DNA of 10,982 nt from Candidatus Hadarchaeales archaeon (GCA_038872135.1 JAVZGN010000026.1:1-10982), one strand, 5' to 3'. Counted from the stretch's first letter, positions 2,262 through 10,530 are shown. Program-made: numbers and translations. Notes: a model not told the origin generated them from the sequence alone.

Positions 2262-3098
2262 CTATTTTTTCACAAACTCCTCAACGCGCCCGATGGCCCT
2301 CTCCAGCCGCTCCAGAACATTTACCTTTTTAGCAACTTTTATCTCAGCCAGCTTTCGGGCGATTTTCTTTAACGCAAGACTTGCTGGAGATTTTGGGTAT
2401 GCGGCCACAACTGGTAGGTTCTCCCTGAAAGCGACATCGACAGCCTCATCAAAGGGGATTGTCCCGAGAACCGGAGCTATTCCTGAAGCTTTTTTCACCC
2501 AGGTGGAAAGATGAACCCCCTTCATAACTTTCGAAACCACAACCCCGGCCGCTTCGACGTCCATCAACTTAGAAAGCCCCTGGGCAGTTGCAAGGGTTGA
2601 GGAGATCGAGTCATCATTGGCCTCGCACACATAGAGGATCTTGTCTGATACTCCGGTCAGGAGAATGTGCTCATAGGAGACTGAGGCAGGGGTGTCGATG
2701 ATTATCCTGCTGAACTTTTCTCTCATCTCAGAAAACGTGCGGTCTAGTATCCTGCAGCATCTCAAAAATTTTTCGCCGACATCACCCCTCCCAAAAGAAA
2801 TGAACCTTCCGCCTGCCGGCATTATCGCGAGGTTTGGATAAAGGAGATCCTCACCACTTGTGAGCTGGCAGGTGTAGGTTGCATCTCTCCAGGATCTCCT
2901 CCCGATCATCACATCGAAAAGGGTGGCATCTTTTGTCGGGCACATCTTCAGCTCAACCGATCTCACGTGAAGGTCTCCATCCACCAAGAGGATTTTTTCA
3001 TCTGGCTTCATGAGAGACATCCAGATGGAAACCCCCATCGCCACGGTTGTCTTTGAGACACCACCCTTTGTGCCGACCACAGAGAAAACTGTGCCCAT
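2262..3098 (-). CDS. MinD/ParA-family (deviant Walker A) ATPase
   Basis: SVVGTKGGVSKTT, LLVDGDL, IIIDTPA, GVVVSKV, LGTIPFDEAV and LPVV..YPKSPAS are all MinD-like. C-terminal amphipathic-looking helix VLERLERAIGRV. ATG3098 has SD GGTGA 6 nt upstream; alternative GTG3104 overlaps the upstream stop. Confidence 0.88.
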   Translation of the reverse strand: MGTVFSVVGTKGGVSKTTVAMGVSIWMSLMKPDEKILLVDGDLHVRSVELKMCPTKDATLFDVMIGRRSWRDATYTCQLTSGEDLLYPNLAIMPAGGRFISFGRGDVGEKFLRCCRILDRTFSEMREKFSRIIIDTPASVSYEHILLTGVSDKILYVCEANDDSISSTLATAQGLSKLMDVEAAGVVVSKVMKGVHLSTWVKKASGIAPVLGTIPFDEAVDVAFRENLPVVAAYPKSPASLALKKIARKLAEIKVAKKVNVLERLERAIGRVEEFVKK

Positions 3099-3100
3099 CG

Positions 3101-3466
3101 TCACTCACCCTGAACAGGCCGCAGGTATGTCTGAATTCTCACATCTTTGCTCCTGTAGATGAGCTTGCTCCTGACACCGCCCTTCACCGTGTCAACATGC
3201 CCGATGAGCCCTGCTCTTTCTAGTATCCTGAGGTGGTGGAGCAATGATTTCACCCCGCCCTTCTTCCCCGTTGCCTCGCCCAGGAGATTTAGAAGTTCTT
3301 TCTGCCTGAGGGGCCCCTCGTCGAGAAGTTCCAGAATTTTTCTTCTGAGGGGATTCGCGAGAGCTGCGCAGATTTCTCCAGCGGCTTCTGGTGAAACTGT
3401 GGTCCATCCCTCCGTCGCCTCAAAGGGAAGAGGCTTCTCTATTTTCTTTATCTCTTGGGGTTCCAT
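3101..3466 (-). CDS. ArsR/SmtB-like winged helix-turn-helix protein
   Basis: ALANPLRRKILELL, LLHHLRILERAGLI and wing segment KGGVRSKLIY. ATG at 3466 (TTG 3469 alternative). Abuts the MinD-like gene. Confidence 0.85.
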   Translation of the reverse strand: MEPQEIKKIEKPLPFEATEGWTTVSPEAAGEICAALANPLRRKILELLDEGPLRQKELLNLLGEATGKKGGVKSLLHHLRILERAGLIGHVDTVKGGVRSKLIYRSKDVRIQTYLRPVQGE

Positions 3467-3469
3467 CAA

Positions 3470-3546: not shown

Positions 3547-4815
3547 GTGATTGACTCCATCACAAAAACCGTTGCATTGGTGATTTTTCTCTCCTGCTAC
3601 ATCCTAGCAATCACCAGGAAGATAAAGCTGGCATATGTGGGCATCGGAAGCGCAATCGCTTTGCTCTTTGTTCTTCTCCCGACCGGTGGAATCACCCCCG
3701 AAGCTGCTTTTAGTTCAATCAACTGGGGCGTTCTGGCGATTTACTGGGGCTTTTTGATGATGGCAATCACTTTCTCAAAGAGCGGTGTTCCAACAAAAGT
3801 AGCCAGATCCATTTTGAAAAAAACGAGAAACGAAGGGATAGCTCTTTTCATTCTCTGTGGACTCACAGCGCTGATTTCCTCCTTCATGGAAAATGTTGGG
3901 ACAGTAATACTCATGGCACCGATTGCAATAGAAGTCGCAAAAATTGCTCGCTCATCTCCTTTTCTCCATCTCGTTTCAATCGCCATCAGCAGCAACATGG
4001 TCACAACTGTGACGATGATTGCAGATCCACCGGCCTTGATCCTCGCCGAAAACATTGGGATGAAATTCACAGATTTCTACCTCTTCAATGGGAAAATTGG
4101 TTTGGGAGCCATAAGCATCCTTGGAGTAATCGCCGGGCTGGCAGTCATGGCCCTGATAAATTTCAGGAAGATGAGGAAGAAAATTCTCCTCAAAGAAGAA
4201 AAGGTTGAAGTCACATATCTTCCAACGATTCTTTTTGCAGCAGGAATCATTGCCCTTGCCCTTATCCCCTATCTTGGTGTTTGGAATGGGTGGGTGGGAA
4301 TTGGAGTCGGAATCCTTGCCATCCTCGCAGGGAGAAAATTCATTGGAAAGATGTTCCGGGAATTTGACTGGAACTCCTTTTTCTTCATCTTTGGGATTTT
4401 CATTGTCGTTGGCGCCGTAAACTTCATTGGCCTCCTCCGAGATTTCGCCGGCTTCCTGCTGGGGCTTGGACTGAACAATCCCGTCGTGGTGCTGGCGGTG
4501 ATCACTTGGATATCAGTCATTTTATCTAGTTTCATCGACAATGTTCCATTCACAATGCTCATGATCCCCGTCTGCACCACCATCGCAGGTTCCATCAGCA
4601 TGAGCGCCTATCCTCTGCTCTACGGGATGGTGGTCGGAACAGGAATCGGTGGAAATGTTCTCCCCATCGGGGCCACAGCAAATGTCTTTGCATGTGGAAT
4701 GCTTGAGAAGATGGGCCATAAAATCAGGTTGAGAGAATATCTTAAACTCAGTCTCCCCTCCACAATAGTCTCAGTTGGAGTTGCACATCTCCTCCTTCAG
4801 CTCCTTTGGATGTGA
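3547..4815 (+). CDS. ArsB/NhaD/CitMHS-type ion transporter (IT superfamily) permease
   Basis: 422 aa, highly hydrophobic with many TM segments. Repeated family motifs ISSFMENVGT / LSSFIDNVPF, SSNMVTTVTMIADPP and GGNVLPIGATANV. Substrate cannot be determined. Confidence 0.85.
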   Translation: MIDSITKTVALVIFLSCYILAITRKIKLAYVGIGSAIALLFVLLPTGGITPEAAFSSINWGVLAIYWGFLMMAITFSKSGVPTKVARSILKKTRNEGIALFILCGLTALISSFMENVGTVILMAPIAIEVAKIARSSPFLHLVSIAISSNMVTTVTMIADPPALILAENIGMKFTDFYLFNGKIGLGAISILGVIAGLAVMALINFRKMRKKILLKEEKVEVTYLPTILFAAGIIALALIPYLGVWNGWVGIGVGILAILAGRKFIGKMFREFDWNSFFFIFGIFIVVGAVNFIGLLRDFAGFLLGLGLNNPVVVLAVITWISVILSSFIDNVPFTMLMIPVCTTIAGSISMSAYPLLYGMVVGTGIGGNVLPIGATANVFACGMLEKMGHKIRLREYLKLSLPSTIVSVGVAHLLLQLLWM

Positions 4816-5009: not shown

Positions 5010-5365
5010 CCAATTTCTAAAGCTTGCGGCCATCTAACACCGGTTGATTCTGCCGGAGGCCACTGCTATTGGGGTCCGACTAAGCCATGCAAGTCATAGG
5101 GCCTCGGGGCAACCCGAGGTACCTGGCGCACGGCTCAGTAACACGTCGTCAACCTACCCTAGGGACGGGGATAACCTCGGGAAACTGAGGATAATACCCG
5201 ATGGGCGAGGGAAGCTGGAATGCTCCTTCGTCGAAAGGCCGAAAGGCGCCCTAGGATGGGACGGCGGCCTATCAGCTAGTTGGTGGTGTAACGGACCACC
5301 AAGGCTACGACGGGTACGGGCGACGAGAGTCGGAGCCCGGAGATGGGGACTGAGACAAGGCCCCA

Positions 5366-5396
<31 letters not shown>

Positions 5397-5782
5397 CCGC
5401 AATGCGCGAAAGCGTGACGGGGGGACCCCAAGTGCCGCTGGCCTTTGGTCGGCGGCTTTTGCCAAGTCTAAAAAGCTTGGCGAATAAGGGCTGGGTAAGT
5501 CGGGTGCCAGCCGCCGCGGTAATACCCGCAGCCCAAGTGGTGGCCACGTTTATTGGGCCTAAAGCGCTCGTAGCCGGATCGGTGAGTTCCTCGTGAAATC
5601 GACCAGAAGACTGGTCGGCGCGCGGGGAATACCACCGGTCTAGAGGCCGGGAGACGCCGAGGGTACTCCGGGGGGAGCGGTGAAATGCTGTAATCCTCGG
5701 GGGACCACCAGTGGCGAAAGCGCTCGGCGAGAACGGGCCTGACGGTGAGGGGCGAAGGCTAGGGGAGCGAACGGGATTAGAT

Positions 5783-6700
5783 ACTACAAAGTGTCCCCCT
5801 CGGTAGCGATACCGAGGTGCGCACCCAACTATATCGGTGGAACCTCGTCTTGCACGGGCGAGGCAACACCGAGGGAAGTCGCTTAAAGCGACCCCGTAGA
5901 GACTAGAGCGCGTGGAGGTGATAGAAGATGGTGAACCCATCTTTGTCCGAAAGCGTGCGGGCAGTGGTGTTAGGCAGCATACTTGGCGATGGCAGTCTGA
6001 GAAAGTTCAAAAATTACGAAAACGCGCGGTTTTGTTTCAGACACTCACTAAAGCAGAGAGAATACTTTCTGTGGAAAGTCTCGCTACTGAAAGAAATCTC
6101 GGATGAGAACTGCTGGCGCGAACAGCCGCCAGACGGGTGGAGCAAGACTCCAAAGCTACACTACTGTAGCAAGGCGCTGCCAGAGCTCACGAAACTGTAC
6201 GAGCTGACACATAAGAAGGGCAAGTTAGAAGTTAGAAGAAAGTGGCTCAACATGATGACGCCATTGTCGCTGGCAATACTCTGGTTTGACGACGGTTCCA
6301 TAATAGGCAACGGGCGCAAAGGGGTCCTCTGCACTGACAATGTGCCACTCAGAGGACAACTTGTGTTTTGTAAATACCTGCGCAAAGTATGGGGCATCAA
6401 AGCCAGAGTCGGGAGAAAAAGAAAAGGTAGCGATGTCTACAGAGTATGGATACGCTCCGCCGAAAGTCTCAAAAAACTTCTCCGCATCGTGATGCCATTC
6501 GCCAAGGTTGAGTCAGTACTGCCGAAGCTGCTACTACTATACAAGGACGCACGCGCTCAAAAACGTTGGGTCTCTGAAGTGTCTGCTACCACGGGATTTC
6601 CCGAAGAGGTAGTGTGGAAATACCTCAACGAGAAGAAATCCCGGTGGCGTGGCTTCAGAGAATGATATAGTCCTACCCTCACGGCGACGTGAGAAGGTTG
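5783..6700 (+). mobile_element. group I intron (IA-like, with P7.1) after 16S U793 (E. coli numbering), 918 nt
   Basis: P1 5780-5785/5790-5795 with U5782.G5793 at the splice site. P2 5798-5817 (GCGA loop). P3 5823-5829/6565-6571. P4 5834-5839/5867-5872. P5 5843-5850/5856-5863. P6/P6a 5873-5895. P7 GACTA 5901-5905/TAGTC 6668-6672. P7.1 5906-5914/6550-6558. P8 6572-6580/6652-6660. P9 6678-6693 (GCGA loop). Terminal G6700. Confidence 0.95.
5928..6665 (+). CDS. intron-encoded LAGLIDADG homing endonuclease (two motifs, I-SceI/LAGLIDADG_2-like)
   Basis: Motif 1 VVLGSILGDGSL, then HSLKQREYFLWK; motif 2 TPLSLAILWFDDGS; CTD motif. SD GGAGGTGAT (5914-5922) matches this genome's anti-SD. Confidence 0.92.
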   Translation: MVNPSLSESVRAVVLGSILGDGSLRKFKNYENARFCFRHSLKQREYFLWKVSLLKEISDENCWREQPPDGWSKTPKLHYCSKALPELTKLYELTHKKGKLEVRRKWLNMMTPLSLAILWFDDGSIIGNGRKGVLCTDNVPLRGQLVFCKYLRKVWGIKARVGRKRKGSDVYRVWIRSAESLKKLLRIVMPFAKVESVLPKLLLLYKDARAQKRWVSEVSATTGFPEEVVWKYLNEKKSRWRGFRE

Positions 6701-7273
6701 ACCCCGGTAGTCCTAGCTGTAAAGGATGCGGGCCAGATGTCGGGTGCTCTTAGAGGGCATCCGGTGTCGGAGGGAAGCCGTTAAGCCCGCCGCCTGGGAA
6801 GTACGGCCGCAAGGCTGAAACTTAAAGAAATTGGCGGGGGAGCACCACAAGGGGTGGGACCTGCGGTTCAATTGGATTCAACGCCGGAAAACTCACCTGG
6901 GGCGACTGCTGGATGAAAGCCAGGCTGACGACCTTGCTGGACTAGCAGAGAGGTGGTGCATGGCCGTCGTCAGCTCGTACCGTGAGGCGTCCTGTCAAGT
7001 CAGGCAACGAGCGAGACCCTCGCCCCTAGTTGCCATCGGTGGGAAGCCGGGCACTCTAGGGGGACCGCTGGCGCTAAGCCAGAGGAAGGAGAGGGCGACG
7101 GTAGGTCAGTATGCCCCGAATCCCCAGGGCCACACGCGGGTCACAATGCGCGGGACAATGGGACGCAACCCCGTGAGGGGAAGCCAATCCCCTAAACCCG
7201 CGCCCAGTTCGGATCGGGGGCTGCAACTCGTCCCCGTGAAGCTGGAATCCCTAGTAATCGCGGGCCAACACCC

Positions 7274-7316
<43 letters not shown>

Positions 7317-7386
7317 GCCACTCGAGTGGGGTTCGAGTGAGGCCTGCTCTTCTTGGGCGGGTCGAACTCTAGCTCCGCAAGAGGGG

Positions 7387-7425
<39 letters not shown>

Positions 7426-7438
7426 CGATCACCTCCTA

Positions 7439-7459: not shown

Positions 7460-7465
7460 CTCGAT

Positions 7466-7537
7466 GGGCCTGTAGCTCAGTGGCAGAGCGCTGGCTTTGC
7501 AAGCCAGAGGTCGCGGGTTCAAATCCCGCCAGGTCCA
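7466..7537 (+). tRNA. tRNA-Ala (TGC), 16S-23S spacer
   Basis: Acceptor stem GGGCCTG/CAGGTCC with G3.U70. Anticodon arm CTGGC-TTTGCAA-GCCAG, anticodon 7498-7500. T arm GCGGG-TTCAAAT-CCCGC. CCA not encoded; no intron. Confidence 0.97.
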
Positions 7538-8144
7538 TACCATCAAAAGATGCGGTGCTTGAAGTCACCTTCATGCACTAAGGGCATATTGCGCTCAAGC
7601 GCAAGATGATTGCCGTGCACAGGTTGCGCCAGGCAAGCTGGGTAGAAGAACAGGGAACCCACCTGGGGGATGGCTTGGCTCCAGCGCCGAGGAAGGTCGT
7701 GGCAAGCGGCGAAACGCCCAGGGTAGGCGCATGCAGCCTTTGATCCTGGGATTGCCGAATGGGACCTCCTGCTAGGGAAAAACCCTGGCGCTCGCGGCAG
7801 CGAGCGGGAACCCCGGGAACGGAAACATCTTAGTACCGGGAGGAGAAGAAAGCAACTGCGATGCCCTGAGTAACGGCGAGTGAAAAGGGCAGAGGGCAAA
7901 CCGAACCTGGTGGCGAAAGTCACTGGGGATGTGGAGTTGCAGGACTCTCCTCAATCTCTCGCGCGGGAAGCCGAAGTCGGCTGGAAAGCCGCACCTCAGA
8001 GGGTGAAAGTCCCGTAGGTGTAACTGCGCAGGGTATGAGGGAGAGGATCCTGAGTAGGGCGCCTTGGAAATGGCGTCTGAAGCTGGGAGGCATCAACTCC
8101 CAACCCTAAATACTGCTGGAGACCGATAGCGGACGCAGTACCGC

Positions 8145-9683: not shown

Positions 9684-10530
9684 CGAGTAAGGGGGTTGTA
9701 AAACCCTGCTATATGCGGGGAAAACTAGAGGTGCAGACTACTCACATGAGTAACAATGTCTGCATCGGTGAGGTTGACCCGCAGGAAACCCCTATGACAG
9801 AAAAACCGTAAATATGCCGAGTTCCTCTTCTTAAAAGAGGAAACAACATGTCATTGGCATACCTGGTAGGTCTCATGCTTGGGGACGGTGGAGTTTACGG
9901 GAATACCTATACAGTTTTCTGCAGGGACAGGGATAAAGAATTCGTGGAATCCTGCGCGAGGATGGTCAAAGAGTTGTTTGACATACAACCAAAGGTTCAC
10001 AGGGTTGCTGTGAACTGCTGGGCTACAAGCACAAACCGGCGGGACATTCACCAATACTTTTGTAAAATTGGATATCCAAAAGGACGAAAGTTGACCACCG
10101 CTAAGATTCCAGCGGTATTTCTGGAGAAGAGCAGCGATAGAATCGATGTTTTAAAAGGGCTTTTTGATGCGGAAGGATATTGCGGAGTCGATAGACAAAA
10201 GCATGGGGACAAAATTTACGAGTATCCCTACGTCGGCTTAGACATGATTGCGAGGCCGATCGTCAAAGAAGTTCAAAAGATTCTGAGAGAACTGGGGATA
10301 GAAAGCAATGTTCTAGTGAAGAGACCTCGTGCTAGAGGAAAACATCCGCAATGGTCGGTGTTGATCAAAGGAAAAGATAGAGTCCAGAAGTTTGCGCAGA
10401 CACTTGGATTCAGGCATCCAGTAAAATTTGTCCGACTGAAAGAAATCCTTGAGGGGGATCCTCAGAGACCATACGCAGGGCATCCGAAAGGATGATGATA
10501 TGGTCCACCTTTTCCTAATGGAAAAGGGTG
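9684..10530 (+). mobile_element. group I intron (IB-like, no P2, no P7.1) after 23S U1923, 847 nt
   Basis: P1 9675-9684/9691-9700 with U9683.G9692. P10 9688-9691/10531-10534. P3 CCCTGC 9704-9709/GCAGGG 10475-10480. P4 9714-9719/9778-9783. P5 extension 9730-9766. P6 9784-9786/10459-10461, P6a 9789-9793/10452-10456. P7 GACCA 10467-10471/TGGTC 10501-10505. P8 10481-10494 (GAAA loop). P9 10508-10527. Terminal G10530. Confidence 0.95.
9848..10495 (+). CDS. intron-encoded LAGLIDADG homing endonuclease (two motifs, intein/archaeal DOD-like)
   Basis: Motif 1 AYLVGLMLGDGG; KGRKLTTAKIP; motif 2 VLKGLFDAEGY; LRELGIES; FAQTLGFRHPVK. SD-like GAGGA at 9837-9841. Inserted in the P6 loop. Confidence 0.92.
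   Translation: MSLAYLVGLMLGDGGVYGNTYTVFCRDRDKEFVESCARMVKELFDIQPKVHRVAVNCWATSTNRRDIHQYFCKIGYPKGRKLTTAKIPAVFLEKSSDRIDVLKGLFDAEGYCGVDRQKHGDKIYEYPYVGLDMIARPIVKEVQKILRELGIESNVLVKRPRARGKHPQWSVLIKGKDRVQKFAQTLGFRHPVKFVRLKEILEGDPQRPYAGHPKG

Follow-up and report, generated by a model that had tools for sequence, protein, structure and literature searches.

Introduction

Thirty-nine archaeal group I introns were described in 2018 by Nawrocki, Jones and Eddy (PMC6125680), in a survey that relied on IA3 and IB4 subgroup models and for which the Rfam group I intron model RF00028 found 0 of the 39. The insertion sites in Table 1 of that paper are in the large-subunit (LSU) ribosomal RNA (rRNA) gene, plus position 1498 of the small-subunit (SSU) gene only, with SSU/793 not among them; the introns designated IA3.2 and IA3.3 (LSU/2500) are Hadesarchaea records. 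The present work concerns an interruption of the 16S rRNA gene in a stretch of DNA of 10,982 nucleotides (nt), here called the window, which is one contig (C26) of the genome GCA_038872135.1 (1.08 Mb, 34 contigs, 91% complete). The host is an archaeon of a Hadarchaeota family. Positions 5783-6700 of the window are very probably a mobile group I intron, lodged in the 16S rRNA gene of the host at the 790 loop.

The window intron resembles the introns of the 2018 survey in that it lies in an archaeal rRNA gene known from a metagenome, carries a LAGLIDADG gene as those frequently do, is missed by RF00028 and is recognised by its structure, and its host shares a broad lineage with the Hadesarchaea of that survey (PMC6125680). 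Unlike them, it is located at SSU/793 and has its open reading frame (ORF) in P7.1. Bacterial introns at 793 have the same site and helices as the window intron, and a LAGLIDADG_2 gene in the P7.1 loop, and the copies from Thiotrichaceae and Syntrophaceae also have its P1 loop, UACAAA. Most bacterial 793 copies, in contrast to the window, have a long hairpin in the P1 loop, a joiner of 5 nt rather than 6 between P7.1 and P3, and a far lower G+C content. In bacteria of the Candidate Phyla Radiation (CPR), group I introns with LAGLIDADG_2 genes are found at several 16S sites (PMC11270868). The likeness of the window intron to those of the CPR extends to the conserved 16S sites, the presence of ORF-less and degenerate copies alongside, and homing across distant hosts; the same account also cites the experimental characterisation of 16S introns from giant sulfur bacteria (PMC11270868).

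A literature search for a group I intron at S793, or for a 16S intron at S795, found none. A 2012 PNAS paper by Salman et al. reportedly deals with self-splicing 16S introns of giant sulfur bacteria; one of these, at about position 795, may occupy the site of the window intron, and an AC repeat at the ends of the intron permits the site to be named 793, 794 or 795. Judged by their listings, none of the papers found on self-splicing and archaeal group I introns is experimental work on the splicing of the latter, and, judged by title, none of the work on Hadarchaeota 16S introns deals with the present one. As far as checked, then, the 793 site is new for archaea. An initial annotation, made from the sequence of the window alone, had proposed a complete group I ribozyme intron at 16S position 793, and comparative, thermodynamic and homology tests now agree with it; it overrated the novelty of the find, given the introns published in 2018 (PMC6125680) and the abundance of this family in bacterial 16S genes.

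The interrupted 16S rRNA gene

The window contains an archaeal rRNA operon made up of the SSU gene (5037-7437), a gene for tRNA-Ala (7465-7538) and the LSU gene (from 7642 to the window end). The SSU gene matches the Rfam model SSU_rRNA_archaea (RF01959) at 1398.5 bits, and spans 2401 nt against the 1478 positions of the model. Both exons fall within this match, which bears out the archaeal host of the initial annotation: exon 1 (5037-5782, plus strand), whose boundary was read from the junction, has the 3' end GGGAUUAGAU, and exon 2 (6701-7437, plus strand) starts with ACCCCGGUAGUCC. The extra DNA between them, flanked by GGGATTAGAT (last base 5782) and ACCCCGGTAGTCC (first base 6701), is the 918-nt intron at 5783-6700 on the plus strand, delimited by its junctions, its fold, covariation and comparison with intron-less relatives. 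The repetition of AC at both intron ends allows the boundary to be written in three ways, shifted by at most 2 nt, among which 5783-6700 is the sole one that places a U last in the 5' exon and a G last in the intron. By the numbering of the 785F primer site, the insertion lies after E. coli position 793.

Five relatives were searched with exon 1. The gene was present in four (G001, G003, G010 and G013), each with the site uninterrupted, and the exon 1 search of the other, G002 (88% complete), gave no match. In G010 and G013 the site reads GGGATTAGATACCCCGGTAGTCCTAGCTGTAAAG, letter for letter the joined exons of the window; excision of the intron in silico therefore restores the exact uninterrupted gene sequence, including the 790 loop, as had been proposed. 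The assembly contains one SSU gene, the interrupted copy only, which means that the organism needs the intron to be removed. The 790 loop is universally conserved in the small subunit, and we strongly infer that the intron is removed in vivo.

Fold of the ribozyme core

All the helices from P1 to P9 named in the initial annotation pair in the window with 0 mismatches, and the U.G wobble at the splice site, P7, the GNRA loops on P2 and P9 and the terminal G that it listed are likewise all present. The helices lie on the plus strand, and counts out of 26 refer to the alignment of introns described in the next section. In P1 (5780-5784/5791-5795) the sequence GAU/AC, which spans the splice site, pairs with GUGUC across the loop UACAAA, with the wobble U5782.G5793; four of its pairs are invariant in 26/26 introns. 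The U-G pair itself is present in all 26, and as the exon side is invariant rRNA this provides no covariation evidence. P2 is a hairpin of 8 base pairs (bp) (5798-5805/5810-5817) with the loop GCGA; a GNRA loop is found here in 26/26, its G and A being invariant. P3 is formed by CCCAAC (5824-5829) and GUUGGG (6565-6570), the latter also serving as codons of a conserved KRW motif in the encoded protein. P4 (5834-5839/5867-5872) is joined to P5 (5843-5849/5857-5863) through A-rich J4/5 and J5/4, both helices being recovered by minimum free energy folding, and P6 (5878-5882/5888-5892) is a hairpin marked by covariation.

J6/7 and the 5' strand of P7 (5893-5905) read CCCGUAGAGACUA, in which A5900 is bulged between G5899 and G5901. 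P7 (5899 and 5901-5905 with 6668-6673) is paired 100% in 26/26 introns. Its G-C pair beside the bulge is accompanied by the core elements GUAGAGACUA and AUGAUAUAGUCC, which in the homologue L159 line up with the corresponding consensus segments of RF00028; this pair, G5901-C6672, is presumably the guanosine-binding one, a naming that follows the Tetrahymena structure. P8 (6571-6661) has a conserved base of 9 bp (6571-6579/6653-6661) and an extension (6589-6647), and is followed by J8/7 and the 3' strand of P7 (6662-6673), reading AUGAUA and then UAGUCC. P9 is a 6-bp hairpin (6678-6683/6688-6693) with the loop GCGA, whose G and A are conserved in at least 90% of the 26 introns. The terminal G (omega G) is G6700; it is G in 26/26 aligned rows, a G having been demanded by the pattern used to select them. 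A P3 first drawn by eye from GCGC at 5820-5823 and GCGC at 5909-5912 was rejected: the homologue L003 cannot form it, and the bases belong to J2/3 and P7.1.

Without the P7.1 loop the ribozyme comprises about 280 nt. Prediction of the folding of 5776-5924 recovered P1, P2, P4, P5 and P6 (z = -3.73), and that of 6559-6706 recovered P8 and P9 (z = -5.46); none of 200 shuffled sequences folded as well as either half of the ribozyme.

Homologues and covariation

Homologues were collected with a pattern taken from P4'-P6-J6/7-P7, which was found in at least 119 metagenomic stretches. A pattern scan of genome contigs also gave at least 119 stretches, nearly all of them chance matches outside 16S genes; the real ones, among the matches listed, were L039, L059, L078 (identical to L003) and L115 (identical to L006). 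A GGATTAGAT-like exon lay upstream of the core in 47 non-duplicate rows (plus two exact duplicates), and these divided into 30 complete introns, as judged by a 3'-exon pattern, and 17 in which the contig ended or the pattern was missed. Alignment A1 comprises 26 of the 30, the ORF-less L159 and L175, L221 with its decayed ORF, and L162, which is at position 788, having been excluded. Four of its rows are archaeal (the window, L003, L006 and L008); the 22 others are metagenomic, and were found by the pattern over part of P4', J6/7 and the 5' strand of P7, with a terminal G demanded. The 3' strand of P7 is outside the search pattern. The structure tested on A1 came from one of its own rows, that of the window.

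Pairing was observed in 84.4% of the 2285 cells of A1, as against 71.3% in shuffled alignments (0/500 reached the observed value) and 38-48% when the structure was slid by 1-3 columns. Double-sided changes occur in 58 of the 91 pairs, and the covariation score is 0.413, compared with 0.172 (shuffled) and 0.09-0.14 (slid). The helices proposed from the window are thus strongly supported by covariation as well as by folding energy. The compensatory changes affect all 8 pairs of P2 (99.5% paired), 2 pairs of P3 (99.4%), 1 of P4 (99.4%), 6 of the 7 in P5 (79.4%), 4 of the 5 in P6 (96.2%), all 7 in P7.1a (97.3%), 4 in the base of P8 (96.6%) and all 6 in P9 (97.3%). P1 and P7 are invariant in A1, and hence uninformative in this respect. 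The P8 extension (6589-6647) was considered as a conserved element and discarded, its helices being only 54-68% paired in A1. One contig of X7, another sequencing run from hot springs, joins 6577 to 6655 (side 29), and represents a relative of the intron without this extension.

P7.1 and the endonuclease gene

P7.1 (5906-5914/6550-6558, plus strand) has the 5' strand GAGCGCGUG and the 3' strand CACGCGCUC. Its pairing on the columns of A1 is just 42.9%, the bacterial copies being offset by one column; when each sequence was inspected separately, a helix of 4-12 bp was found in 26/26, adjoining P7 directly and stopping 5-6 nt short of P3', in many differing sequences. Subgroup IA is defined by an extra P7.1 (with P7.1a or P7.2) between P7 and P3', a definition that reportedly originates with Michel and Westhof in 1990. 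The extra pairing is found here, and the sequence comparison supports the P7.1-containing, IA-like architecture put forward initially. The P7.1 loop (5915-6549, 635 nt) is exactly the segment that the initial annotation had suggested removing ahead of a model search, and it carries most of an ORF that was absent from that annotation.

This ORF, at 5928-6665 on the plus strand, is intact and encodes a LAGLIDADG protein of 245 amino acids (aa). The protein matches PF03161 (LAGLIDADG_2) over residues 11-179 with E 3.5e-31 and 108.9 bits (cut-off 25), and the translation has the two LAGLIDADG motifs, LGDGS near residue 20 and FDDGS near residue 121, pointing to a homing endonuclease. A phmmer search of PDB sequences found no relative of solved structure. 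The last third of the ORF doubles as P7.1', the joiner, P3' and the whole of P8, and its stop codon, TGA (6663-6665), sits within J8/7. The start codon, an ATG at 5928, is preceded by five bases and the Shine-Dalgarno-like GGAGGUGA (5915-5922), and is enclosed in P7.1a, a hairpin (5925-5943, plus strand; A1 columns 334-399) in which AAGAUGG pairs with CCAUCUU. The window and many bacterial copies have P7.1a around the start codon, and in copies with longer inserts the ATG is in the hairpin loop. By holding the start codon in an RNA fold, P7.1a could gate translation of the endonuclease.

The coding sequence is differently placed in the two other archaeal homologues L006 (449-1323; genome G060) and L008 (777-1652; genome G050), in which the endonuclease ORF continues across P8, P7' and P9 as far as the last bases of the intron, and the TGA stop codon lies across the 3' splice site, its final base being the first base of the exon. 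In both of these introns a further hairpin separates P2 from P3, and the P8 extension is absent.

Relation to Rfam models and to other group I introns

The intron is homologous to group I introns that Rfam recognises. Its ORF-less homologue at the same site, L159, matches RF00028 over model positions 1-253 with 45.2 bits (E 1.4e-10), and in this alignment the columns of P2, P3, P4-P6, GUAGAGACUA, P8, GAUAUAGUCC and P9 agree with the model of the window intron, while P7.1 appears as an insertion, located after the GUAGAGACUA element and before P3'. Two introns that share a 24-base core pattern exceed the gathering score of RF00028, namely L162 in a 16S gene (76.4 bits) and L206 in a 23S gene (53.2 bits). 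On our reading of its junctions, L162 lies at position 788.

L162 (1917-2093), L197 and L196 form a set of related group I introns at 788, five bases upstream of the present site, which are ORF-less or differently built; their P3-P7 core is about 80% identical by eye, and they have no P7.1.

A second intron is present in the LSU gene of the window (9684-10530, 847 nt), following AACCCU and with a 3'-terminal G, at a site presumably near E. coli position 1923. It contains an ORF (9848-10495) that matches LAGLIDADG_3 with E 3.6e-17. RF00028 aligns to it at 10337-10526 with 25.9 bits, below the gathering score, through UCAGAGACCA, P8 (CAUCC/GGAUG), GAUAUGGUCC and P9; since these elements all lie within that interval, the whole catalytic core overlaps the last third of the ORF. 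The LSU intron probably belongs with the IB4-like group I introns, such as are tabulated at LSU/1923 in the 2018 survey (PMC6125680).

Distribution, hosts and history

When 201 related genomes were searched with the intron, G024 proved to have a full-length copy (70% identity over 1-918) and G012 the first 67 nt of one, at a contig end; short core matches in G050 and G060 belonged, on inspection, to full introns at the same site, of 876 and 875 nt respectively. A complete 793 intron is therefore present in three genomes of the same order (G024, G050 and G060). Within the family the intron occurs patchily, as a mobile element would be expected to do.

Relatives of the intron, among the matches listed, are mostly in bacterial 16S genes. 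For all 12 of the metagenomic hosts in A1 that were tested, the bacterial SSU model gave the best score, and the other 10 metagenomic rows have exons that by eye are Patescibacteria-like. The Thiotrichaceae (L039/L255) and Syntrophaceae (L059) copies are also in a bacterial 16S context, that from Thiotrichaceae being 929 nt long with an ORF of 247 aa. Bacterial 16S genes also contain copies at the same site which are ORF-less (L159 and L175, 284 and 279 nt) or have a decayed ORF (L221 and L223), and the same bacterial 16S genes carry further introns, as in L237 (9042-9321; RF00028, 65.6 bits) and in L230, where 10478-10540 matches group II D1-D4 at 45.4 bits.

In a tree of the endonucleases, the proteins of the window and of L003 fall inside the bacterial sequences (support 94/92), while those of L006 and L008 are placed elsewhere on a long branch. 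A tree in which the four archaeal proteins are kept together is still accepted (approximately unbiased (AU) test, p 0.211), so the tree does not fix the number of transfers. Transfer between the domains is the simplest reading of an intron family that they share.

Base composition, heat and sequencing runs

The G+C content of the SSU exons is 62.4% and that of the 5' domain of the ribozyme 59.1%. The body of the ORF, at 49.3%, equals the host coding DNA of the window (49.2%), and most bacterial copies are at 31-46%. Among the 53 core pairs of the window intron, 33 are G-C and 0 are mismatched, and the four archaeal copies rank 1, 2, 4 and 5 among the 26. Such a G+C-rich core fits adaptation to a warm host, and judged from this composition and from the hot-spring label of a run that contains it the intron is a candidate thermostable self-splicing ribozyme. 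In the genome (91% complete) no match to the reverse gyrase profile TIGR01054 exceeded its cut-off, and the topoisomerase I of the window scored highest (173 bits); that marker accordingly gives no support to hyperthermophily.

One DNA run, X1, labelled as a hot springs metagenome, contains 0.81 of the words, with a depth of about 4 over the intron. Its contigs are identical to the window over 5738-6291 (0 differences), one unitig spanning the 5' junction. Exon-exon joints, from 5781 to 6700/6701, were seen in X1, X3, X7 and X15, the short side of each covering 18-24 letters of conserved rRNA; these could derive from other, intron-less organisms, and so are evidence neither of splicing nor of an intron-less allele.

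Weighing the evidence and its alternatives

Several observations weigh against an active group I intron at 5783-6700. RF00028 gave no match to the window intron at its gathering score (50 bits), none up to E 10 on either 5760-6730 or the 5' half (5776-5935), and in the search of the whole genome did not report it, the LSU intron being the sole match; L159, the best-scoring of the same-site homologues that were scored, is itself 4.8 bits below the gathering score. The exon pairing of P1 is only 3 bp, P10 was not found in the window intron, and in one degenerate relative, L223, an A replaces the terminal G. In A1 the P7 5' strand, part of P4' and the terminal G are invariant partly because of the way in which the homologues were picked. 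The RNA sequencing runs contain 5-6% of the words, and their exon joints are indistinguishable from those of intron-less relatives. The initial annotation had named a missing covariance-model hit as a reason to abandon the group I assignment, and RF00028 is indeed silent on this copy; the silence is explained by the 635-nt P7.1 loop, which exceeds what the model tolerates, and the ORF-less L159 does align to the model helix by helix.

The shortness of P1 and the missing P10 would also be understandable if the intron were derived from a group I intron and needed a protein helper, either its own LAGLIDADG protein as a maturase or a host factor. Some LAGLIDADG proteins do act as maturases, and the overlap of the ORF with P7.1', P3' and P8 couples RNA and protein tightly. 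Such dependence is nevertheless unlikely, as the core helices and joining segments are all intact and under covariation, and the persistence of the ORF-less L159 and L175 in bacterial 16S genes implies that there the RNA manages without the protein. Far less probable still is that the intron is a classical archaeal one, excised at a bulge-helix-bulge (BHB) motif by tRNA splicing endonuclease and ligase, with the group I-like fold as a relic. Archaeal rRNA introns are usually of this kind, often with a LAGLIDADG gene (PMC6125680), and a scan of both junctions for a 4-bp helix with 2-4-nt bulges and outer helices did allow a weak arrangement to be drawn, in which GAUU (5775-5778) faces GGUU (6696-6699). 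In that candidate one pair is Watson-Crick and the other three are G.U; the inner helix amounts to 0-1 bp, and the 3-nt bulge (5779-5781) misses the cut needed to restore the gene; the scan found no further candidates near the splice sites. The initial annotation had listed spliced junctions consistent with BHB cleavage among the outcomes that would overturn it, and the junctions hold no credible motif for it. Covariation, moreover, maintains a ribozyme core for which a relic would have no need, and bacteria host the same intron. To our knowledge the archaeal-type tRNA splicing endonuclease (EndA) is absent from these bacterial hosts. The lack of a BHB motif and the bacterial hosts together make splicing by endonuclease and ligase very unlikely.

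There is, lastly, a barely appreciable chance that a bacterial intron was stitched into an archaeal contig during assembly. The genome was binned from a metagenome, in 34 contigs, and the relatives of the intron, among the matches listed, are mostly bacterial; against this, archaeal exons of a single rRNA operon lie on both flanks, the 5' junction is crossed by unitigs of X1 that are 100% identical to the window, the same site is occupied in four other genomes of the family or order, and the G+C content of the ORF is that of the host rather than that of most bacterial copies.

Proposed splicing and homing

On the reading of a mobile group I intron, the primary rRNA transcript would fold into the P1-P9 core. 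Catalysis is predicted to depend on guanosine: an exogenous guanosine bound at G5901-C6672 in P7 would attack the phosphate following U5782, the base that P1 keeps in its U.G wobble; G6700, at the intron end, would take the place of the guanosine, and the 3' end of exon 1 would then attack after G6700, so that GAU is joined to ACC and the 790 loop is made whole again. The LAGLIDADG protein, for which endonuclease activity is predicted from its family, would cut intron-less 16S genes at the conserved site, and the intron would be copied in by repair. Homing of this kind at a universally conserved site would explain the occurrence of the same intron in bacteria and archaea. P7.1a probably restrains translation as long as the RNA is folded.

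A fuller account would make this the first archaeal group I intron described at 16S-793, active and heat-tolerant, which crossed between the domains by homing into the universally conserved 790 loop and has since become adapted to its hot-spring host in the G+C content of its helices and in ORF composition, with P7.1a coupling translation to folding. Taken as a whole this account is plausible, and falls just short of being probable.

Neighbouring genes

Upstream of the rRNA operon the window encodes a topoisomerase I with a zinc ribbon (124-2202), a ParA/MinD-like ATPase (2262-3104, minus strand), a protein of ArsR type with a helix-turn-helix domain (3101-3469, minus strand) and a transporter of CitMHS/ArsB type (3547-4815).

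Significance

The picture drawn in 2018, that archaea have group I introns, is unchanged by these results. To the short tally of such introns they add the SSU site 793 and a hot-spring host. With the insertion, the 16S gene is enlarged by 0.9 kb at the site of the 785F/805R primers, so that archaea of this kind would be missed or mis-sized in amplicon surveys. One family of intron and endonuclease, common to archaea and several bacterial phyla, provides material for the study of cross-domain homing, and the small, G+C-rich ribozyme would lend itself to an easy test of self-splicing at high temperature. If the proposed account is true, group I catalysis and homing between domains could be studied at high temperature in this intron, as a compact natural system.

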